NCBI RefSeq assembly: GCF_013122565.1
Contig: NZ_CP053258.1
Source: Escherichia coli
Lineage (GTDB): Bacteria > Pseudomonadota > Gammaproteobacteria > Enterobacterales > Enterobacteriaceae
Reading direction: 5' to 3' (one strand)
DNA length: 64,000 nucleotides
Shown here: piece after piece, positions 9,480 to 16,836 of the stretch
Numbering within the stretch: position 1 is the stretch's first letter
Layout of the letters: every line of letters begins with the position of its first letter
Notes under the pieces: generated by a model
The model's input: only the letters and a program-made list of their open reading frames with translations
Database searches by the model: none
Told to the model about the DNA's origin: nothing
Translations under genes and position numbers: made by a program

Positions 9480-11633
9480 ATGCTAAGTCCTTTGCTCAAA
9501 CGCTATACCTGGAACAGCGCCTGGCTGTATTACGCGCGTATTTTTATTGCGCTTTGTGGAACCACAGCGTTTCCGTGGTGGCTGGGTGATGTAAAACTGA
9601 CGATTCCGCTGACGCTGGGGATGGTGGCAGCGGCGCTGACCGATCTCGATGACCGACTGGCGGGACGTTTGCGTAACCTCATCATTACGCTGTTCTGCTT
9701 TTTTATCGCCTCGGCCTCAGTAGAATTGCTGTTTCCCTGGCCCTGGCTATTTGCGATTGGCTTAACGCTCTCTACCAGCGGCTTCATTTTGCTCGGCGGT
9801 CTGGGTCAACGCTATGCAACAATTGCCTTCGGTGCATTGCTGATCGCCATTTACACTATGTTGGGAACATCACTGTATGAGCACTGGTATCAGCAGCCGA
9901 TGTATCTGCTGGCCGGTGCCGTCTGGTACAACGTCCTGACACTTATTGGTCATCTGCTGTTCCCGGTCCGCCCGCTGCAGGACAACCTGGCGCGTTGCTA
10001 TGAACAACTGGCGCGTTATCTTGAGCTCAAGTCGCGCATGTTTGATCCTGATATTGAAGATGAAAGCCAGGCACCGCTGTACGATTTGGCTCTCGCCAAC
10101 GGTCAGCTGATGGCGACATTGAATCAGACGAAACTCTCGCTGCTGACCCGCTTACGTGGCGATCGTGGTCAACGGGGAACGCGTCGCACGCTGCATTATT
10201 ACTTTGTCGCACAGGATATTCACGAGCGTGCCAGCTCTTCTCATATTCAGTATCAAACATTGCGTGAACATTTTCGCCACAGCGACGTGCTGTTCCGTTT
10301 TCAGCGGCTGATGTCGATGCAGGGCCAGGCGTGCCAGCAACTGTCACGCTGTATTTTGCTGCGTCAGCCTTATCAACATGATCCGCATTTTGAGCGCGCT
10401 TTTACGCATATTGATGCTGCCCTGGAGCGGATGCGCGATAACGGCGCGCCTGCCGATTTACTCAAAACACTGGGATTTTTGCTGAACAATTTACGCGCCA
10501 TTGATGCCCAACTGGCAACAATTGAATCAGAACAGGCCCAGGCACTGCCCCATAATAATGACGAAAATGAGCTCGCTGATGACAGCCCGCACGGATTGAG
10601 TGATATCTGGCTGCGTCTTAGCCGTCACTTCACGCCGGAATCCGCCCTCTTCCGTCATGCGGTAAGAATGTCGCTGGTGTTGTGCTTCGGCTACGCCATC
10701 ATTCAAATAACCGGAATGCATCACGGGTATTGGATCTTGCTGACAAGTTTGTTTGTCTGCCAGCCAAACTATAACGCCACGCGCCACCGCCTGAAGTTAA
10801 GGATTATTGGTACGCTGGTAGGTATCGCCATTGGCATTCCTGTGCTGTGGTTTGTACCGTCACTGGAAGGGCAGCTGGTGCTACTGGTTATTACCGGCGT
10901 GCTCTTTTTTGCCTTCCGTAACGTGCAATATGCCCATGCAACGATGTTCATCACACTTTTGGTGCTACTGTGTTTTAACTTGCTGGGTGAAGGTTTTGAA
11001 GTAGCGTTACCTCGCGTAATCGATACGCTGATTGGTTGTGCCATTGCGTGGGCGGCAGTGAGCTACATCTGGCCTGACTGGAAGTTTCGCAATCTGCCGC
11101 GCATGCTCGAACGCGCCACAGAGGCCAACTGTCGCTATCTCGATGCCATACTGGAGCAATACCATCAGGGGCGTGATAACCGTCTGGCGTATCGTATTGC
11201 CCGCCGCGATGCACACAACCGTGATGCTGAACTGGCGTCGGTGGTATCAAATATGTCCAGCGAACCGAACGTTACCCCGCAAATTCGCGAAGCCGCGTTT
11301 CGGTTGCTGTGCCTTAACCATACGTTTACCAGCTATATCTCAGCCCTCGGTGCTCACCGGGAGCAGTTAACTAATCCTGAAATTCTGGCGTTTCTTGATG
11401 ACGCAGTTTGCTATGTTGATGACGCGTTACATCATCAACCTGCTGATGAAGAACGCGTCAATCAGGCATTAGCTGGCCTGAAACAGCGGATGCAGCAACT
11501 TGAACCACGGGCAGACAGCAAAGAACCTCTGGTCGTACAACAAGTTGGGTTATTGATTGCATTACTGCCAGAGATTGGTCGTCTGCAACGCCAGATTACT
11601 CAAGTTCCGCAGGAAACTCCTGTTTCGGCGTAA
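9480..11633 (+). CDS. yccS: Inner membrane protein YccS (FUSC-like), 717 aa
   Basis: ORF 9471..11633; start set at second ATG (MLSPLLKRYTWNSAW) per remembered 717-aa length; 9471 is an alternative. Confidence 0.85.
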   Translation: MLSPLLKRYTWNSAWLYYARIFIALCGTTAFPWWLGDVKLTIPLTLGMVAAALTDLDDRLAGRLRNLIITLFCFFIASASVELLFPWPWLFAIGLTLSTSGFILLGGLGQRYATIAFGALLIAIYTMLGTSLYEHWYQQPMYLLAGAVWYNVLTLIGHLLFPVRPLQDNLARCYEQLARYLELKSRMFDPDIEDESQAPLYDLALANGQLMATLNQTKLSLLTRLRGDRGQRGTRRTLHYYFVAQDIHERASSSHIQYQTLREHFRHSDVLFRFQRLMSMQGQACQQLSRCILLRQPYQHDPHFERAFTHIDAALERMRDNGAPADLLKTLGFLLNNLRAIDAQLATIESEQAQALPHNNDENELADDSPHGLSDIWLRLSRHFTPESALFRHAVRMSLVLCFGYAIIQITGMHHGYWILLTSLFVCQPNYNATRHRLKLRIIGTLVGIAIGIPVLWFVPSLEGQLVLLVITGVLFFAFRNVQYAHATMFITLLVLLCFNLLGEGFEVALPRVIDTLIGCAIAWAAVSYIWPDWKFRNLPRMLERATEANCRYLDAILEQYHQGRDNRLAYRIARRDAHNRDAELASVVSNMSSEPNVTPQIREAAFRLLCLNHTFTSYISALGAHREQLTNPEILAFLDDAVCYVDDALHHQPADEERVNQALAGLKQRMQQLEPRADSKEPLVVQQVGLLIALLPEIGRLQRQITQVPQETPVSA

Positions 11634-12225
11634 GAGAGTCAGCCCATTCTGCAAGCTCCTGGCGGCGTGCCACCGGGAGCGCAGCTTCATGAATACCGAT
11701 AATGGCACCTTCAAGCATAAACAGAATCTTTTCTGTCACCAGACTGTTTTGCTGCCGCAGTCGCAACCAACACATTTTTGCCCCAAGTATACGTAACGCC
11801 CGTACATCCTTAATCCCCACCTCCCCGAGAATCGCTTCCAGATGAAAAGACATATTGGGCAAATCTTTCAGTCTTTCCCGGGTATTGCGCGTGCTTTTCT
11901 CTTTCAGCGCTGCATCGAGAGAATATTTCGACAGACGCACCAGCTTCAGTTGATTTCGCCATAGACTTTCATCAACCCGATAGTAATTGAGGGTAACGGA
12001 TCGGCCACACTTTTTATATGTCAGCCAGACAGGCGGATGTTTTACACAGTACTGTGCACTTTGCTCACAAGCCCGAAGATACAACTCACCATCAGAAACC
12101 ATCGCAAACACCGTGTCGTCAACGGTCAGGCTGTAACTGCCAAACAATGATCGGTATTCAATTGTGCCCAACGTTGCCAGGTATTCTTGTGATTTATAGA
12201 TCCGCTTATAGGAGAGGCTTTTCAT
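11596..12225 (-). CDS. sxy: Competence regulator Sxy/TfoX, 209 aa
   Basis: ORF 11596..12225; MKSLSYKRIYKSQEYLATLGTIEYRSLFGSYSL; 3' end overlaps yccS by 38 nt. Confidence 0.92.
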   Translation of the reverse strand: MKSLSYKRIYKSQEYLATLGTIEYRSLFGSYSLTVDDTVFAMVSDGELYLRACEQSAQYCVKHPPVWLTYKKCGRSVTLNYYRVDESLWRNQLKLVRLSKYSLDAALKEKSTRNTRERLKDLPNMSFHLEAILGEVGIKDVRALRILGAKMCWLRLRQQNSLVTEKILFMLEGAIIGIHEAALPVARRQELAEWADSLTPKQEFPAELE

Positions 12226-12401
12226 AAAATTCCTTTTAAAATCATAACATAAAAGAATGATTCACATTAACGGATCCGTTAACTACGAAAATAGGCAACT
12301 TATTCTTAAGGGGCAAGATTAATTTATGTTTTCCCGTCACCAACGACAAAATTTGCGAGGCTCTTTCCGAAAATAGGGTTGATCTTTGTTGTCACTGGAT
12401 G

Positions 12402-12421
12402 TACTGTACATCCATACAGTA
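12402..12421 (+). promoter_or_regulatory. LexA operator (SOS box) in the sulA promoter
   Basis: TACTGTACATCCATACAGTA, perfect CTGT-N8-ACAG palindrome, 23 nt upstream of the sulA ATG. Confidence 0.9.
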
Positions 12422-12443
12422 ACTCACAGGGGCTGGATTGATT

Positions 12444-12953
12444 ATGTACACTTCAGGCTATGCACATCGTTCTTCGTCGTTCTCATCCGCAGCAAGTAAA
12501 ATTGCGCGTGTCTCTACGGAAAACACTACAGCCGGGCTTATCAGTGAAGTTGTCTATCGCGAAGATCAGCCCATGATGACGCAACTTCTTCTGTTGCCAT
12601 TGTTACAGCAACTCGGTCAGCAATCGCGCTGGCAACTCTGGTTAACACCGCAACAAAAACTGAGTCGGGAATGGGTTCAGGCATCTGGGCTACCCTTAAC
12701 GAAAGTAATGCAGATGAGCCAGCTCTCCCCTTGCCACACCGTGGAATCAATGGTTCGCGCTTTACGCACGGGCAATTACAGTGTGGTGATCGGTTGGTTG
12801 GCAGATGATTTGACTGAAGAAGAGCATGCTGAACTTGTTGATGCGGCAAATGAAGGTAACGCTATGGGGTTTATTATGCGTCCGGTAAGCGCTTCCTCTC
12901 ACGCAACGAGACAACTTTCCGGGCTAAAAATTCACTCTAATTTGTATCATTAA
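12444..12953 (+). CDS. sulA: SOS cell-division inhibitor SulA, 169 aa
   Basis: ORF 12438..12953 trimmed to [15 protein letters not shown]. Confidence 0.93.
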
Positions 12954-13176
12954 GTAAATTTAGGATTAATCCTGGAACTTTTTTTGTCGCCCAGCCAATG
13001 CTTTCAGTCGTGACTAATTTTCCTTGCGGAGGCTTGTCTGAAGCGGTTTCCGCGTTTTTTTTCTGTAAATTGTCGCTGACAAAAAAGATTAAACGTACCT
13101 TATACAAGACTTTTTTTTCATATGCCTGACGGAGTTCACACTTGTAAGTTTTCAACTACGTTGTAGACTTTACATC

Positions 13177-13309
13177 GCCAGGGGTGCTCGGCATAAGCCG
13201 AAGATATCGGTAGAGTTAATATTGAGCAGATCCCCCGGTGAAGGATTTAACCGTGTTATCTCGTTGGAGATATTCATGGCGTATTTTGGATGATAACGAG
13301 GCGCAAAAA
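13177..13309 (+). promoter_or_regulatory. ompA 133-nt 5' untranslated leader (stabilising hairpins, Hfq/MicA target region)
   Basis: Sequence from GCCAGGGGTGCTCGGCATAAGCCGAAG to the ATG matches the remembered ompA leader; TSS placement is from literature. Confidence 0.7.
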
Positions 13310-14362
13310 ATGAAAAAGACAGCTATCGCGATTGCAGTGGCACTGGCTGGTTTCGCTACCGTAGCGCAGGCCGCTCCGAAAGATAACACCTGGTACACTG
13401 GTGCTAAACTGGGCTGGTCCCAGTACCATGACACTGGTTTTATTCCTAACAATGGTCCGACCCACGAAAACCAACTGGGTGCAGGTGCTTTTGGTGGTTA
13501 CCAGGTTAACCCGTATGTTGGTTTTGAAATGGGTTACGACTGGTTAGGTCGTATGCCGTACAAAGGCGACAACATCAACGGTGCATACAAAGCTCAGGGC
13601 GTTCAACTGACCGCTAAACTGGGTTACCCAATCACTGACGATCTGGACGTATACACTCGTCTGGGTGGTATGGTATGGCGTGCAGACACCAAGTCTAACG
13701 TACCTGGTGGCGCATCCACTAAAGACCACGACACCGGCGTTTCTCCGGTCTTCGCTGGCGGTGTTGAGTACGCGATCACTCCTGAAATCGCTACCCGTCT
13801 GGAATACCAGTGGACCAACAACATCGGTGACGCACACACCATCGGCACTCGTCCGGACAACGGCCTGCTGAGCTTGGGTGTTTCCTACCGTTTCGGTCAG
13901 GGCGAAGCAGCTCCAGTAGTTGCTCCGGCTCCAGCTCCGGCACCGGAAGTACAGACCAAGCACTTCACTCTGAAGTCTGACGTTCTGTTTAACTTCAACA
14001 AAGCAACCCTGAAACCGGAAGGTCAGGCTGCTCTGGATCAGCTGTACAGCCAGCTGAGCAACCTGGATCCGAAAGACGGTTCCGTAGTTGTTCTGGGTTA
14101 CACCGACCGCATCGGTTCTGACGCTTACAACCAGGGTCTGTCCGAGCGCCGTGCTCAGTCTGTTGTTGATTACCTGATCTCCAAAGGTATCCCGGCAGAC
14201 AAGATCTCCGCACGTGGTATGGGCGAATCCAACCCGGTTACTGGCAACACCTGTGACAACGTGAAACAGCGTGCTGCACTGATCGACTGCCTGGCTCCGG
14301 ATCGTCGCGTAGAGATCGAAGTTAAAGGTATCAAAGACGTTGTAACTCAGCCGCAGGCTTAA
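13310..14362 (+). CDS. ompA: Outer membrane protein A precursor, 350 aa (variant loop allele versus K-12)
   Basis: ORF 13238..14362 trimmed to [21 protein letters not shown] signal; beta-barrel plus C-terminal OmpA domain; APAPAPAP hinge. Confidence 0.95.
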
Positions 14363-14377
14363 GTTCTCGTCTGGTAG

Positions 14378-14407
14378 AAAAACCCCGCTGCTGCGGGGTT
14401 TTTTTTG
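14378..14407. terminator. Bidirectional Rho-independent terminator between ompA and matP
   Basis: AAAAA-CCCCGC-TGCT-GCGGGG-TTTTTTTT. Confidence 0.85.
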
Positions 14408-14437
14408 CCTTTAGTAAATTGAACTGACTTTCGTCAG

Positions 14438-14890
14438 TTATTCCTTACCCAGCAATGCCTGCAGATCCTGCTTCAGAGAAGACATTTTATTCGCGTATTT
14501 CTCTTTGTTTTCCGCATCTTCAATCAGCTGAACAATCGTTTCAGAAAGCGTTTTACCGCGACGCTGCGCAAGACCAGCCAGACGTTGCCAGACAATAAAT
14601 TCCAGATCGATCGATTTTTTGCGCGTATGCTGGTGTTCCGCATTAAAATGGCGCTTCCGTCTGGCCCGAATGGTTTGCTTCATGCGATTGACCAGTTCCG
14701 GATTCATATGCTTGTCAATCCAGCCATTTACCAGCACGGGTTCATTTTCCAGCGAGAGCAACACATCGACGGCTTCCTGGGCGGCACTGGCTTCTATGTA
14801 ACGGGTGATTAACTCCCCTTCGCGGTGCTTCTTCACCAGATACTTCCATTTCCAACCGCTTTCAAGATTTTCAAGTTGTTGATATTTCAT
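14438..14890 (-). CDS. matP: Ter macrodomain organiser MatP, 150 aa
   Basis: ORF 14438..14890; [26 protein letters not shown]. Confidence 0.93.
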
Positions 14891-15075
14891 AGCGATCTCA
14901 ATGTTACCGTGTAACTCTTTACAGAATATCAGCTTTTTAGGCCAGTGAAGAAAAGAATCTCCATCCTGTGAGCTTTAACGCTCATGCGAGGAGTATTGTC
15001 GGTGCTTTCTACGTGTGCTGTAGTGCCGGTTACGGTATAATCGCGGCTTTGACAACAGACTAAAAAACATCAACT

Positions 15076-16836
15076 TTGACCATTACGAAACTTGCATGGC
15101 GTGACCTGGTTCCTGATACCGATAGCTATCAGGAAATATTTGCTCAGCCACATTTGATTGACGAAAACGATCCTTTATTCAGTGATACTCAACCGCGACT
15201 GCAATTTGCGCTGGAGCAGTTGCTGCATACGCGAGCATCCTCCTCTTTTATGCTGGCGAAGGCCCCGGAAGAGTCTGAGTATCTGAATCTTATTGCCGAT
15301 GCCGCGCGTACGCTACAAAGCGATGCAGGCCAACTGGTGGGCGGTCACTATGAGGTTTCCGGCCACTCCATCCGCTTACGTCACGCAGTGAGTGCAGATG
15401 ATAATTTTGCGACTTTAACGCAAGTTGTCGCTGCCGACTGGGTAGAAGCGGAGCAACTCTTTGGCTGCCTGCGCCAGTTTAATGGCGACATTACCCTGCA
15501 GCCTGGTCTGGTGCATCAGGCAAATGGCGGTATTCTCATCATCTCTTTGCGTACACTGCTGGCGCAACCTCTTCTGTGGATGCGGCTGAAAAATATCGTT
15601 AACCGCGAGCGTTTTGACTGGGTTGCGTTTGATGAGTCGCGCCCTCTCCCCGTCTCTGTGCCTTCGATGCCATTGAAGCTGAAAGTCATTCTGGTAGGCG
15701 AACGCGAATCATTGGCTGATTTCCAGGAGATGGAGCCAGAGCTTTCAGAGCAGGCTATTTATAGCGAATTTGAAGATACTCTGCAGATTGTCGATGCGGA
15801 GTCAGTAACCCAGTGGTGTCGCTGGGTGACATTTACCGCCAGACATAATCACTTACCTGCACCGGGAGCGGATGCCTGGCCGGTACTTATCCGCGAAGCA
15901 GCACGCTACACCGGTGAACAAGAAACGCTGCCGCTTAGCCCGCAGTGGATCCTCCGCCAGTGTAAAGAGGTCGCCTCCCTGTGTGATGGCGACACCTTCT
16001 CCGGCGAGCAGCTAAACTTAATGCTACAGCAGCGTGAATGGCGCGAAGGTTTCCTCGCTGAACGCATGCAGGATGAGATCCTTCAGGAGCAAATCCTGAT
16101 TGAAACCGAAGGCGAACGCATCGGGCAAATTAACGCCCTTTCGGTCATTGAATTTCCGGGTCATCCACGCGCTTTTGGCGAACCTTCTCGCATTAGCTGC
16201 GTTGTGCATATTGGCGATGGTGAATTCACCGACATCGAGCGCAAAGCGGAGCTTGGCGGCAATATCCATGCGAAAGGGATGATGATCATGCAGGCGTTCC
16301 TGATGTCGGAACTACAGCTTGAGCAACAGATCCCCTTCTCAGCATCGCTGACATTTGAGCAGTCATACAGTGAAGTTGATGGAGATAGTGCCTCGATGGC
16401 TGAACTCTGCGCCCTGATAAGCGCCCTCGCCGATGTGCCGGTGAATCAGAGTATCGCTATCACAGGTTCAGTCGATCAGTTCGGTCGCGCCCAGCCGGTC
16501 GGTGGTTTAAATGAGAAAATCGAAGGCTTCTTTGCTATTTGCCAGCAACGTGAGTTAACCGGGAAACAAGGTGTCATTATCCCCACAGCTAACGTTCGCC
16601 ATTTAAGTCTTCACAGTGAACTGGTGAAAGCAGTAGAAGAAGGCAAATTCACCATCTGGGCAGTAGACGATGTGACTGACGCACTGCCGTTATTATTAAA
16701 TCTGGTGTGGGATGGCGAAGGCCAAACGACGCTGATGCAAACCATCCAGGAACGTATCGCGCAAGCATCGCAACAGGAAGGACGTCACCGTTTTCCATGG
16801 CCATTACGTTGGCTGAACTGGTTTATTCCGAACTGA
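15076..16836 (+). CDS. ycbZ: Lon-related protease-domain protein YcbZ, 586 aa, apparent TTG start
   Basis: ORF 15076..16836; C-terminal Lon S16-like region ([16 protein letters not shown]...GGLNEKIEG); no Walker A GxxxxGK[ST] seen; first codon TTG. Confidence 0.88.

Follow-up and report, generated by a model that had tools for sequence, protein, structure and literature searches.

The stretch of Escherichia coli DNA analysed here (64,000 nt of contig NZ_CP053258.1, hereafter designated as the window) contains the genes yccS, sxy (minus strand), sulA, ompA, matP (minus strand) and ycbZ, which occur in the order found in K-12 and on the opposite strand. An 8-kb alignment of this region with K-12 displays 98.75% identity, with differences that amount to 0.7-1.2% for each gene or spacer outside ompA and to 4.2% inside ompA. 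When the first 25 kb of the window were compared with 5,426 complete RefSeq E. coli genomes, the best of these was only 99.0% identical and, judged from such matches, finished genomes seem to cover the source lineage poorly. The idea raised by this 99.0% figure, that the DNA might come from Shigella or have been altered, was rejected because the exact OmpA protein is named E. coli at NCBI and because, across 4,053 bp, the window is 100% identical to a public contig obtained in sequencing run SRR11451224.

Several features were noted in the spacers of this region. Upstream of sulA, the sequence TACTGTACATCCATACAGTA (12402-12421) forms a CTGT-N8-ACAG palindrome that matches a LexA (SOS) box, and the sxy-sulA spacer (12226-12443) is the same as in K-12. 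Downstream of sulA (13040-13065), three linked substitutions at 13055, 13058 and 13060 convert the K-12 sequence ATTCTCTTC into a run of nine T located directly 3' of a short GC hairpin, GCGGTTTCCGC, which renders this end more terminator-like; the T,T,T form is common only to a few contigs having the same ompA allele. A GC-rich hairpin with T and A runs (14373-14406), located where the convergent ompA and matP genes meet, is likely to act as a bidirectional terminator. The corresponding spacer (14363-14437) has no difference from K-12 and, in an Rfam 15 scan of positions 11000-16000 (E-value up to 1), the segment 14358-14452 gave only weak, sub-threshold matches to terminator-like parts of unrelated families. 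In the same scan no family matched the ompA leader, for which apparently none has been curated.

The ompA 5' untranslated leader occupies positions 13177-13309 on the plus strand: its first bases, GCCAGGGGTGCTCGGCATAAGCCGAAG, are located at 13177, the ompA ATG lies at 13310, and all 133 bases are those of K-12 MG1655. The transcription start that defines a 133-nt leader has been described (PMC1807950) and, with length and position matching exactly, transcription of the ompA gene of the window would begin at the K-12 start. For comparison between species, one genome per GTDB species was scanned with a codon pattern of the signal peptide, a region belonging neither to the leader nor to the loops, resulting in 120 Enterobacterales loci. 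In this set, the promoter-proximal block (13130-13176, plus strand; -47 to -1) is 94-100% identical to the window across Enterobacteriaceae, while the DNA farther upstream is only ca. 50-60% identical. Within the block, comparison revealed a -10-like hexamer, TAGACT (13164-13169, plus strand), which is separated from the start of the leader by 7 nt and which is found upstream of ompA in 115 of the 116 loci having enough flanking sequence. A strict sigma-70 consensus scan found no promoter-like site upstream of 13177.

The architecture of the leader was predicted from minimum free energy and centroid folds, homologues being folded singly between conserved anchors. This procedure was used because RNAalifold, when applied to a MAFFT alignment of 101 leaders, missed the hairpins on misaligned variable stems and returned a meaningless structure of 8 pairs with no compensatory pair; structural support for the hairpins therefore comes from folding of individual sequences alone. 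Considered as a whole, the leader has an unremarkable fold stability (z = -0.6). Both types of prediction place a 5'-terminal stem-loop, hp1, at 13177-13239 (plus strand; leader nt 1-63), in which the first base is paired, G1 with U63. In 87 out of 91 distinct homologous sequences, the predicted hp1 likewise leaves no unpaired 5' base (mean z-score -1.8), and its closing pairs vary in a compensating fashion, as illustrated by GCC...GGU, GCC...GGC and ACC...GGU. A run of five C inside hp1 (13232-13236, plus strand) corresponds to the sole leader polymorphism in a sample of 19 E. coli sequences, the alternative being a run of four, which results from a one-base deletion and was seen in 4 of the 10 complete genomes sampled as well as in 7 of 30 matches taken at even intervals. 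The window and K-12 both have C5, and C4 is the form of about a quarter of the sampled E. coli, of E. albertii and of Salmonella. Since the extra C is predicted as an unpaired base opposite A4, the change would be structurally neutral, and C5 looks like a derived variant.

Next to hp1, a spacer (ss1; 13240-13250, plus strand) is unpaired in the predicted folds, and each of its columns either shows no variation among 101 distinct leaders or reaches a conservation of at least 90%. It begins with a block that is near-invariant in these Enterobacterales leaders, GAAGGAUU (13240-13247, plus strand; leader nt 64-71), for whose conservation we know of no assigned function. This block, lying between hp1 and hp2, resembles a Shine-Dalgarno sequence. 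The second predicted stem-loop, hp2 (13251-13279, plus strand; leader nt 75-103), is found as one hairpin, at a constant position, in nearly all of the 81 distinct homologues, with an upper stem that is completely different between genera; the mean z-score of these folds is -3.3, and 93% of them fall below -2.

The remaining part of the leader (ss2; 13280-13309, plus strand), as read from the sequence, is a single-stranded ribosome-binding region with a Shine-Dalgarno motif GAGG (13298-13301, plus strand) located 8 nt before the ATG. Leader nt 109-132 (13285-13308), UUUGGAUGAUAACGAGGCGCAAAA, are invariant or nearly so in the 101 distinct Enterobacterales leaders, as is the 5' end, GCCAGGG.UGCUC. 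RNAduplex analysis with K-12 MicA predicts that nt 8-24 of this sRNA pair with leader nt 113-128, GAUGAUAACGAGGCGC (13289-13304, plus strand), through 16 pairs with one bulged MicA base (-23.1 kcal/mol). The predicted site overlaps the Shine-Dalgarno sequence and is invariant in the 101 leaders. The interaction was computed with the 3' part of the leader only, the whole-length leader having given a spurious long interaction. An in-frame GTG at 13238, which would add 24 codons to the ompA reading frame through hp2 and ss2, was also noted; its use as the ompA start was rejected as a mechanical artefact of open reading frame detection, this codon having no Shine-Dalgarno sequence and the known start being the ATG at 13310.

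In K-12, the ompA leader is 133 nt long, its first 115 nt carry two stem-loops that stabilise the mRNA, and its duplex with MicA as well as the roles of Hfq and RNase E have been documented (PMC1807950; PMC2777011; PMC3074148). By its sequence, 13177-13309 is the canonical ompA mRNA 5' leader and, since it departs at no base from the K-12 leader that has been tested, the source strain would be expected to show a long ompA mRNA half-life together with Hfq binding, MicA repression and decay through RNase E. As established by others for K-12, hp1 with no free 5' end would, together with hp2, stabilise the mRNA against RNase E, and ribosomes would compete with Hfq and MicA for the single-stranded 3' part that includes the Shine-Dalgarno sequence. 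MicA pairing, in stationary phase or under envelope stress, would then block translation and trigger decay. Few bacterial mRNA stabilisers and sRNA targets have been studied as thoroughly as this leader, and its occurrence here has little discovery value.

The ompA coding sequence that follows (13310-14362, plus strand), as defined by its open reading frame and translation, has 350 codons plus a stop versus 346 codons in K-12. The N-terminal eight-stranded barrel and the C-terminal OmpA-like peptidoglycan-binding domain are both present according to Pfam records for the exact protein (PF01389, PF13505 and PF00691, corresponding to OmpA_membrane and OmpA domains) and to PDB matches, the best of which is the full-length 3nb3 (E = 6e-227), with the barrel structures 1bxw and 1qjp also matching. 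Over residues 21-195, 9fzd_A, a recent OmpA barrel deposit, gave 400 bits versus 358 for the classical K-12 structures 1bxw and 1qjp, which suggests that the structure of a loop variant other than that of K-12 has been solved. On the minus strand, a stop-free frame antisense to ompA (13310-14362) extends over 272 codons and is open through a 12-nt insertion (see below), the equivalent frame in K-12 and O157 having 268 codons. Open antisense frames are a common by-product of codon bias. A 603-bp overlapping gene antisense to ompA, pop, has been claimed in EHEC (PMC7103648).

When compared to K-12, ompA has 32 substituted bases and a 12-base insertion, all within 13441-13990. The distribution is strongly clustered (Fisher P = 9e-15), with 41 of the 44 differing alignment columns, corresponding to 29 substitutions and the insertion, located in a divergent tract at 13441-13724 (plus strand) that spans codons 44-139, namely loops 1 to 3 and the strands between them. 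In loop 1, a single variant codon (13445-13447, plus strand) encodes Pro at mature position 25, where K-12 has Asn; in loop 2, three codons (13568-13576, plus strand) encode DNI at 66-68 in place of SVE; and in loop 3 (13694-13726, plus strand) the SNVYGKN of K-12 is replaced by a longer variant, the 12-nt insertion being aligned at 13708-13719. Altogether the amino-acid changes are, in mature numbering, N25P, S66D, V67N, E68I, I93V, Y111P, the 4-residue insertion, N114D and M161L. In the Pautsch-Schulz numbering, position 25 belongs to loop 1, 66-68 to loop 2 and 108-113 to loop 3 (Liao et al. 2017, PMC5413513), position 114 is the start of the next strand, and 93 and 161 are within strands (PMC5413513). 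Loop 4, the hinge and the C-terminal domain are unchanged from K-12. The original prediction had described an intact leader and changes specific to the loops of the coding region, and both statements agree with these data. When the leader and the coding region are compared separately with K-12, divergence of the former (0 of 133) is not comparable to that of the loops (41 columns in the tract).

The loop combination of the window (positions 25, 66-68, 108-114 and 149, the last being H149) is the one listed in Table 3A of PMC5413513 for strain 256, where it was found in 1 of 78 isolates (Liao et al. 2017). In that survey, position 25 is polymorphic in E. coli (N, P or D), DNI occurs in 46% of the isolates, and V93 and L161 are also listed as polymorphisms, so that every variable position of the window OmpA is a listed E. 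coli polymorphism (PMC5413513). The strain 256 pattern is related to the common patterns II and III of the same study (ANVPGGASFKD), from which the window differs by two residues of loop 3 (S for A and T for F). Related alleles, as cited in PMC5413513, are ompA2 (Power et al. 2006) and that of strain 789 (Gophna et al. 2004), the latter being included in our comparison set as locus L010. The exact protein occurs on ca. 13 public E. coli contigs, and among complete RefSeq E. coli genomes no full-length match to the loop tract exceeded 98.7%; the ompA allele of the window is thus rare. Infection by phages of the Gp38 type is determined by the OmpA loop variant (PMC12032242), and the allele may affect recognition by OmpA-dependent phages (Gp38 adhesin types), by colicins or by antibodies.

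The original prediction further contrasted these loops with a conserved regulatory leader. Conservation proved to be real between species, and the comparison with K-12 from which it had been proposed turned out to be uninformative. At the background rate of 58 differences in 6,947 non-ompA bases, 1.1 differences from K-12 are expected per 133 nt and the probability of finding none is 0.33; this value becomes 0.36 when other intergenic DNA is taken as reference and 0.09 with the more variable sulA-ompA spacer. Because the absence of any change has such a probability at ca. 1% divergence, comparison with K-12 cannot reveal conservation of the leader and, more generally, identity of a 133-base element between E. 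coli strains ca. 1% apart carries no information on constraint. Within the species, 5,389 of 5,425 complete E. coli genomes have a leader with 99% identity or more, and the 19-sequence sample has no substitution in the leader versus 9 segregating sites in the 223-nt upstream spacer (Fisher P = 0.03). Across the interspecies set, leader identity to the window is 0.90-0.97 in Salmonella and Citrobacter, 0.74 in Klebsiella and Raoultella and about 0.6 in Erwiniaceae, the corresponding value for loops 1 and 3 being about 0.5 in most genera. Compared to Salmonella arizonae, the leader has 4 differences when ca. 31 would be expected at the silent-site rate of ompA (P = 7e-11), and the upstream spacer differs at 58 of 123 columns. 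On these sequence comparisons, the leader is under real purifying selection that is visible only between species.

Silent sites provide a means of distinguishing selection on the protein from a more general divergence. Pairwise Nei-Gojobori estimates against K-12, a comparison in which tests are weak, gave a dS of 0.32 (16.5 differences over about 63 sites, hence a large error) and a dN of 0.061 for ompA codons 44-140, versus 0.013 and 0.002 for codons 141 to the end and 0.031 and 0.0019 for the five flanking genes pooled. The tract is thus about ten times more diverged at silent sites as well, which indicates that it is generally more diverged and that it represents an old allele class placed there by recombination. 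This contradicts the original prediction, in which selection acting on the exposed surface, rather than general divergence, accounted for the difference between leader and loops.

An explanation of that kind would be that diversifying selection drove new loop substitutions in the source lineage on a K-12-like gene while purifying selection held the leader constant. Such a scenario would account for replacements that occur in loops 1 to 3 together with two conservative strand changes, for a loop dN (0.080) ten times that of the remaining barrel (0.008) and for a leader that is unchanged relative to K-12; ompA is moreover among the positively selected genes of published genome scans, as cited in bioRxiv 10.1101/2021.09.21.461324. 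However, dN/dS stays below 1 (0.19 in the tract and 0.26 in the loops alone), the replacement-to-silent ratio does not differ significantly between the loops and the rest of ompA (Fisher P = 0.12), the tenfold excess of silent divergence is not explained by selection on amino acids, and an unchanged leader is what chance predicts at 1% divergence. The states found in the window are in addition ancestral, being common to E. albertii and Salmonella (see below), so that the source lineage did not diversify. Silent-site divergence and outgroup polarity together largely refute this lineage-specific selection, which we regard as improbable. Before such selection is invoked for amino-acid clusters in surface loops, both silent sites and outgroups should be checked.

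Outgroups were used to polarise the 32 substitutions. E. albertii has the base of the window at 24 of these sites and that of K-12 at 7, the corresponding numbers being 24 and 5 for Salmonella arizonae, 26 and 6 for one further representative of an Escherichia species and 23 and 8 for another. The DNI of loop 2 is identical in Salmonella arizonae and E. albertii, and all sampled Escherichia outgroups carry the loop class of the window. Since the outgroups agree with the window, it is the window that keeps the ancestral loops and K-12 (L001) that has the diverged class. The idea of loops diversified in the source lineage, as put forward by the original prediction, has consequently to be reversed in direction, the outgroups siding with the window and K-12 being derived, and K-12, the usual reference, has an unusual ompA loop allele.

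The window and Salmonella arizonae have the same loops 1 and 2 and almost the same loop 3 in OmpA proteins whose other parts differ. This could also be taken as the result of convergent evolution under similar pressure, a resemblance to Salmonella or Shigella being interpreted in this way by the title of Gophna et al. 2004, which PMC5413513 cites for the related strain 789 allele, but this is very improbable because nearly all silent differences from K-12 in the part of the tract that runs from loop 2 to loop 3 are common to Salmonella, E. albertii and the two other Escherichia representatives, all Escherichia outgroups carry the same loop class, and shared ancestry accounts for the likeness with no need for convergence.

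Other observations concern the K-12 side of this comparison. Over 13568-13724, K-12 stands apart from Salmonella and from every Escherichia outgroup sampled, at silent and replacement sites alike. The K-12 states at 13568, 13573, 13575, 13690, 13693 and 13696 match Citrobacter; import of the K-12 tract from this genus was considered and discarded, such a small number of shared sites not being evidence and no sampled species being closer overall. A search for a donor of the K-12-type loop 2-loop 3 tract among ca. 90 Enterobacterales ompA genes found none closer than other E. coli alleles.

The reading that we retain, with high confidence, is that of a canonical ompA leader standing before a natural mosaic allele with an older, recombined loop tract. 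The tract is bordered by two segments that have no difference from K-12, one of 345 nt (13096-13440) comprising the promoter region, the leader and ompA codons 1-43, and the other at 13725-13864. K-12-like sequence makes up the leader, codons 1-43 and the 3' two-thirds of ompA, codons 44-139 deriving from a different and much older allele class. This class, defined by P, DNI and the loop 3 of the window, would be ancestral in Escherichia and Salmonella and would circulate in E. coli by short-patch homologous recombination. The leader lying outside the exchanged tract, the difference between leader and loops would mainly reflect where the recombination tract begins and ends; superimposed on this boundary would be purifying selection on the leader and long-term maintenance of alternative loop alleles, the latter having phages and other OmpA loop-binding agents as a plausible driving force. 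All four combinations of leader C4 or C5 with loop 2 SVE or DNI occur in the small E. coli sample, which fits recombination between leader and loops, repeated slippage in the C run being another possible origin of these combinations.

A broader proposal, which we put forward tentatively and consider somewhat less probable than its negation, is that the two main E. coli classes of loop tract (codons 44-140) are about as old as the split between Escherichia and Salmonella and represent a polymorphism of trans-species age under balancing selection. In that case the K-12 form (SVE, SNVYGKN) would be derived or would come from an unsampled donor, and the likeness of the other class to Salmonella would reflect ancestry and not the convergence proposed in 2004. 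This proposal is based on the silent divergence between the classes, 0.32, versus 0.28-0.36 between genera: the dS between the window and Salmonella in the tract is 0.355, roughly equal to the 0.32 between the window and K-12, and outside the tract E. coli and Salmonella arizonae have a dS of 0.28 and a dN of 0.039.

With regard to known systems, the leader, the loop allele and the mosaic evolution of ompA had already been described, and what appears mildly new, on a small number of sites, is the interspecies-level depth of silent divergence together with the ancestral status of the non-K-12 class. The K-12 ompA 5' UTR stabiliser studied by the Belasco laboratory and the MicA/Hfq site that it contains (Udekwu 2005; Rasmussen 2005; via PMC1807950 and PMC2777011) are reproduced in the window in all 133 bases, the predicted hp1, ss1, hp2 and ss2, the Shine-Dalgarno sequence and the 16-bp MicA site all being the same, and no sequence difference was found between the two. 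The OmpA of Salmonella enterica subsp. arizonae (locus L086) has the loops 1 and 2 of the window, a loop 3 that differs at 2 residues and a leader that differs at 4 positions, whereas its hinge and C-terminal domain are different and its upstream spacer is unrelated beyond the promoter block. Finally, mosaic evolution of E. coli beta-barrel porin genes has been reported by Chen et al. (bioRxiv 10.1101/2021.09.21.461324; AEM 2022), who place the ompA variable regions 1 to 3 in loops 1 to 3 and describe their shuffling by local recombination. Their work is protein-based, and neither silent-site depth nor outgroup polarity was found stated in the part of the preprint consulted, the former (dS 0.32) and the latter having been computed in the present analysis. 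The porin mosaics described there combine variable loops with conserved strands and periplasmic parts, and the same organisation is found in the window.
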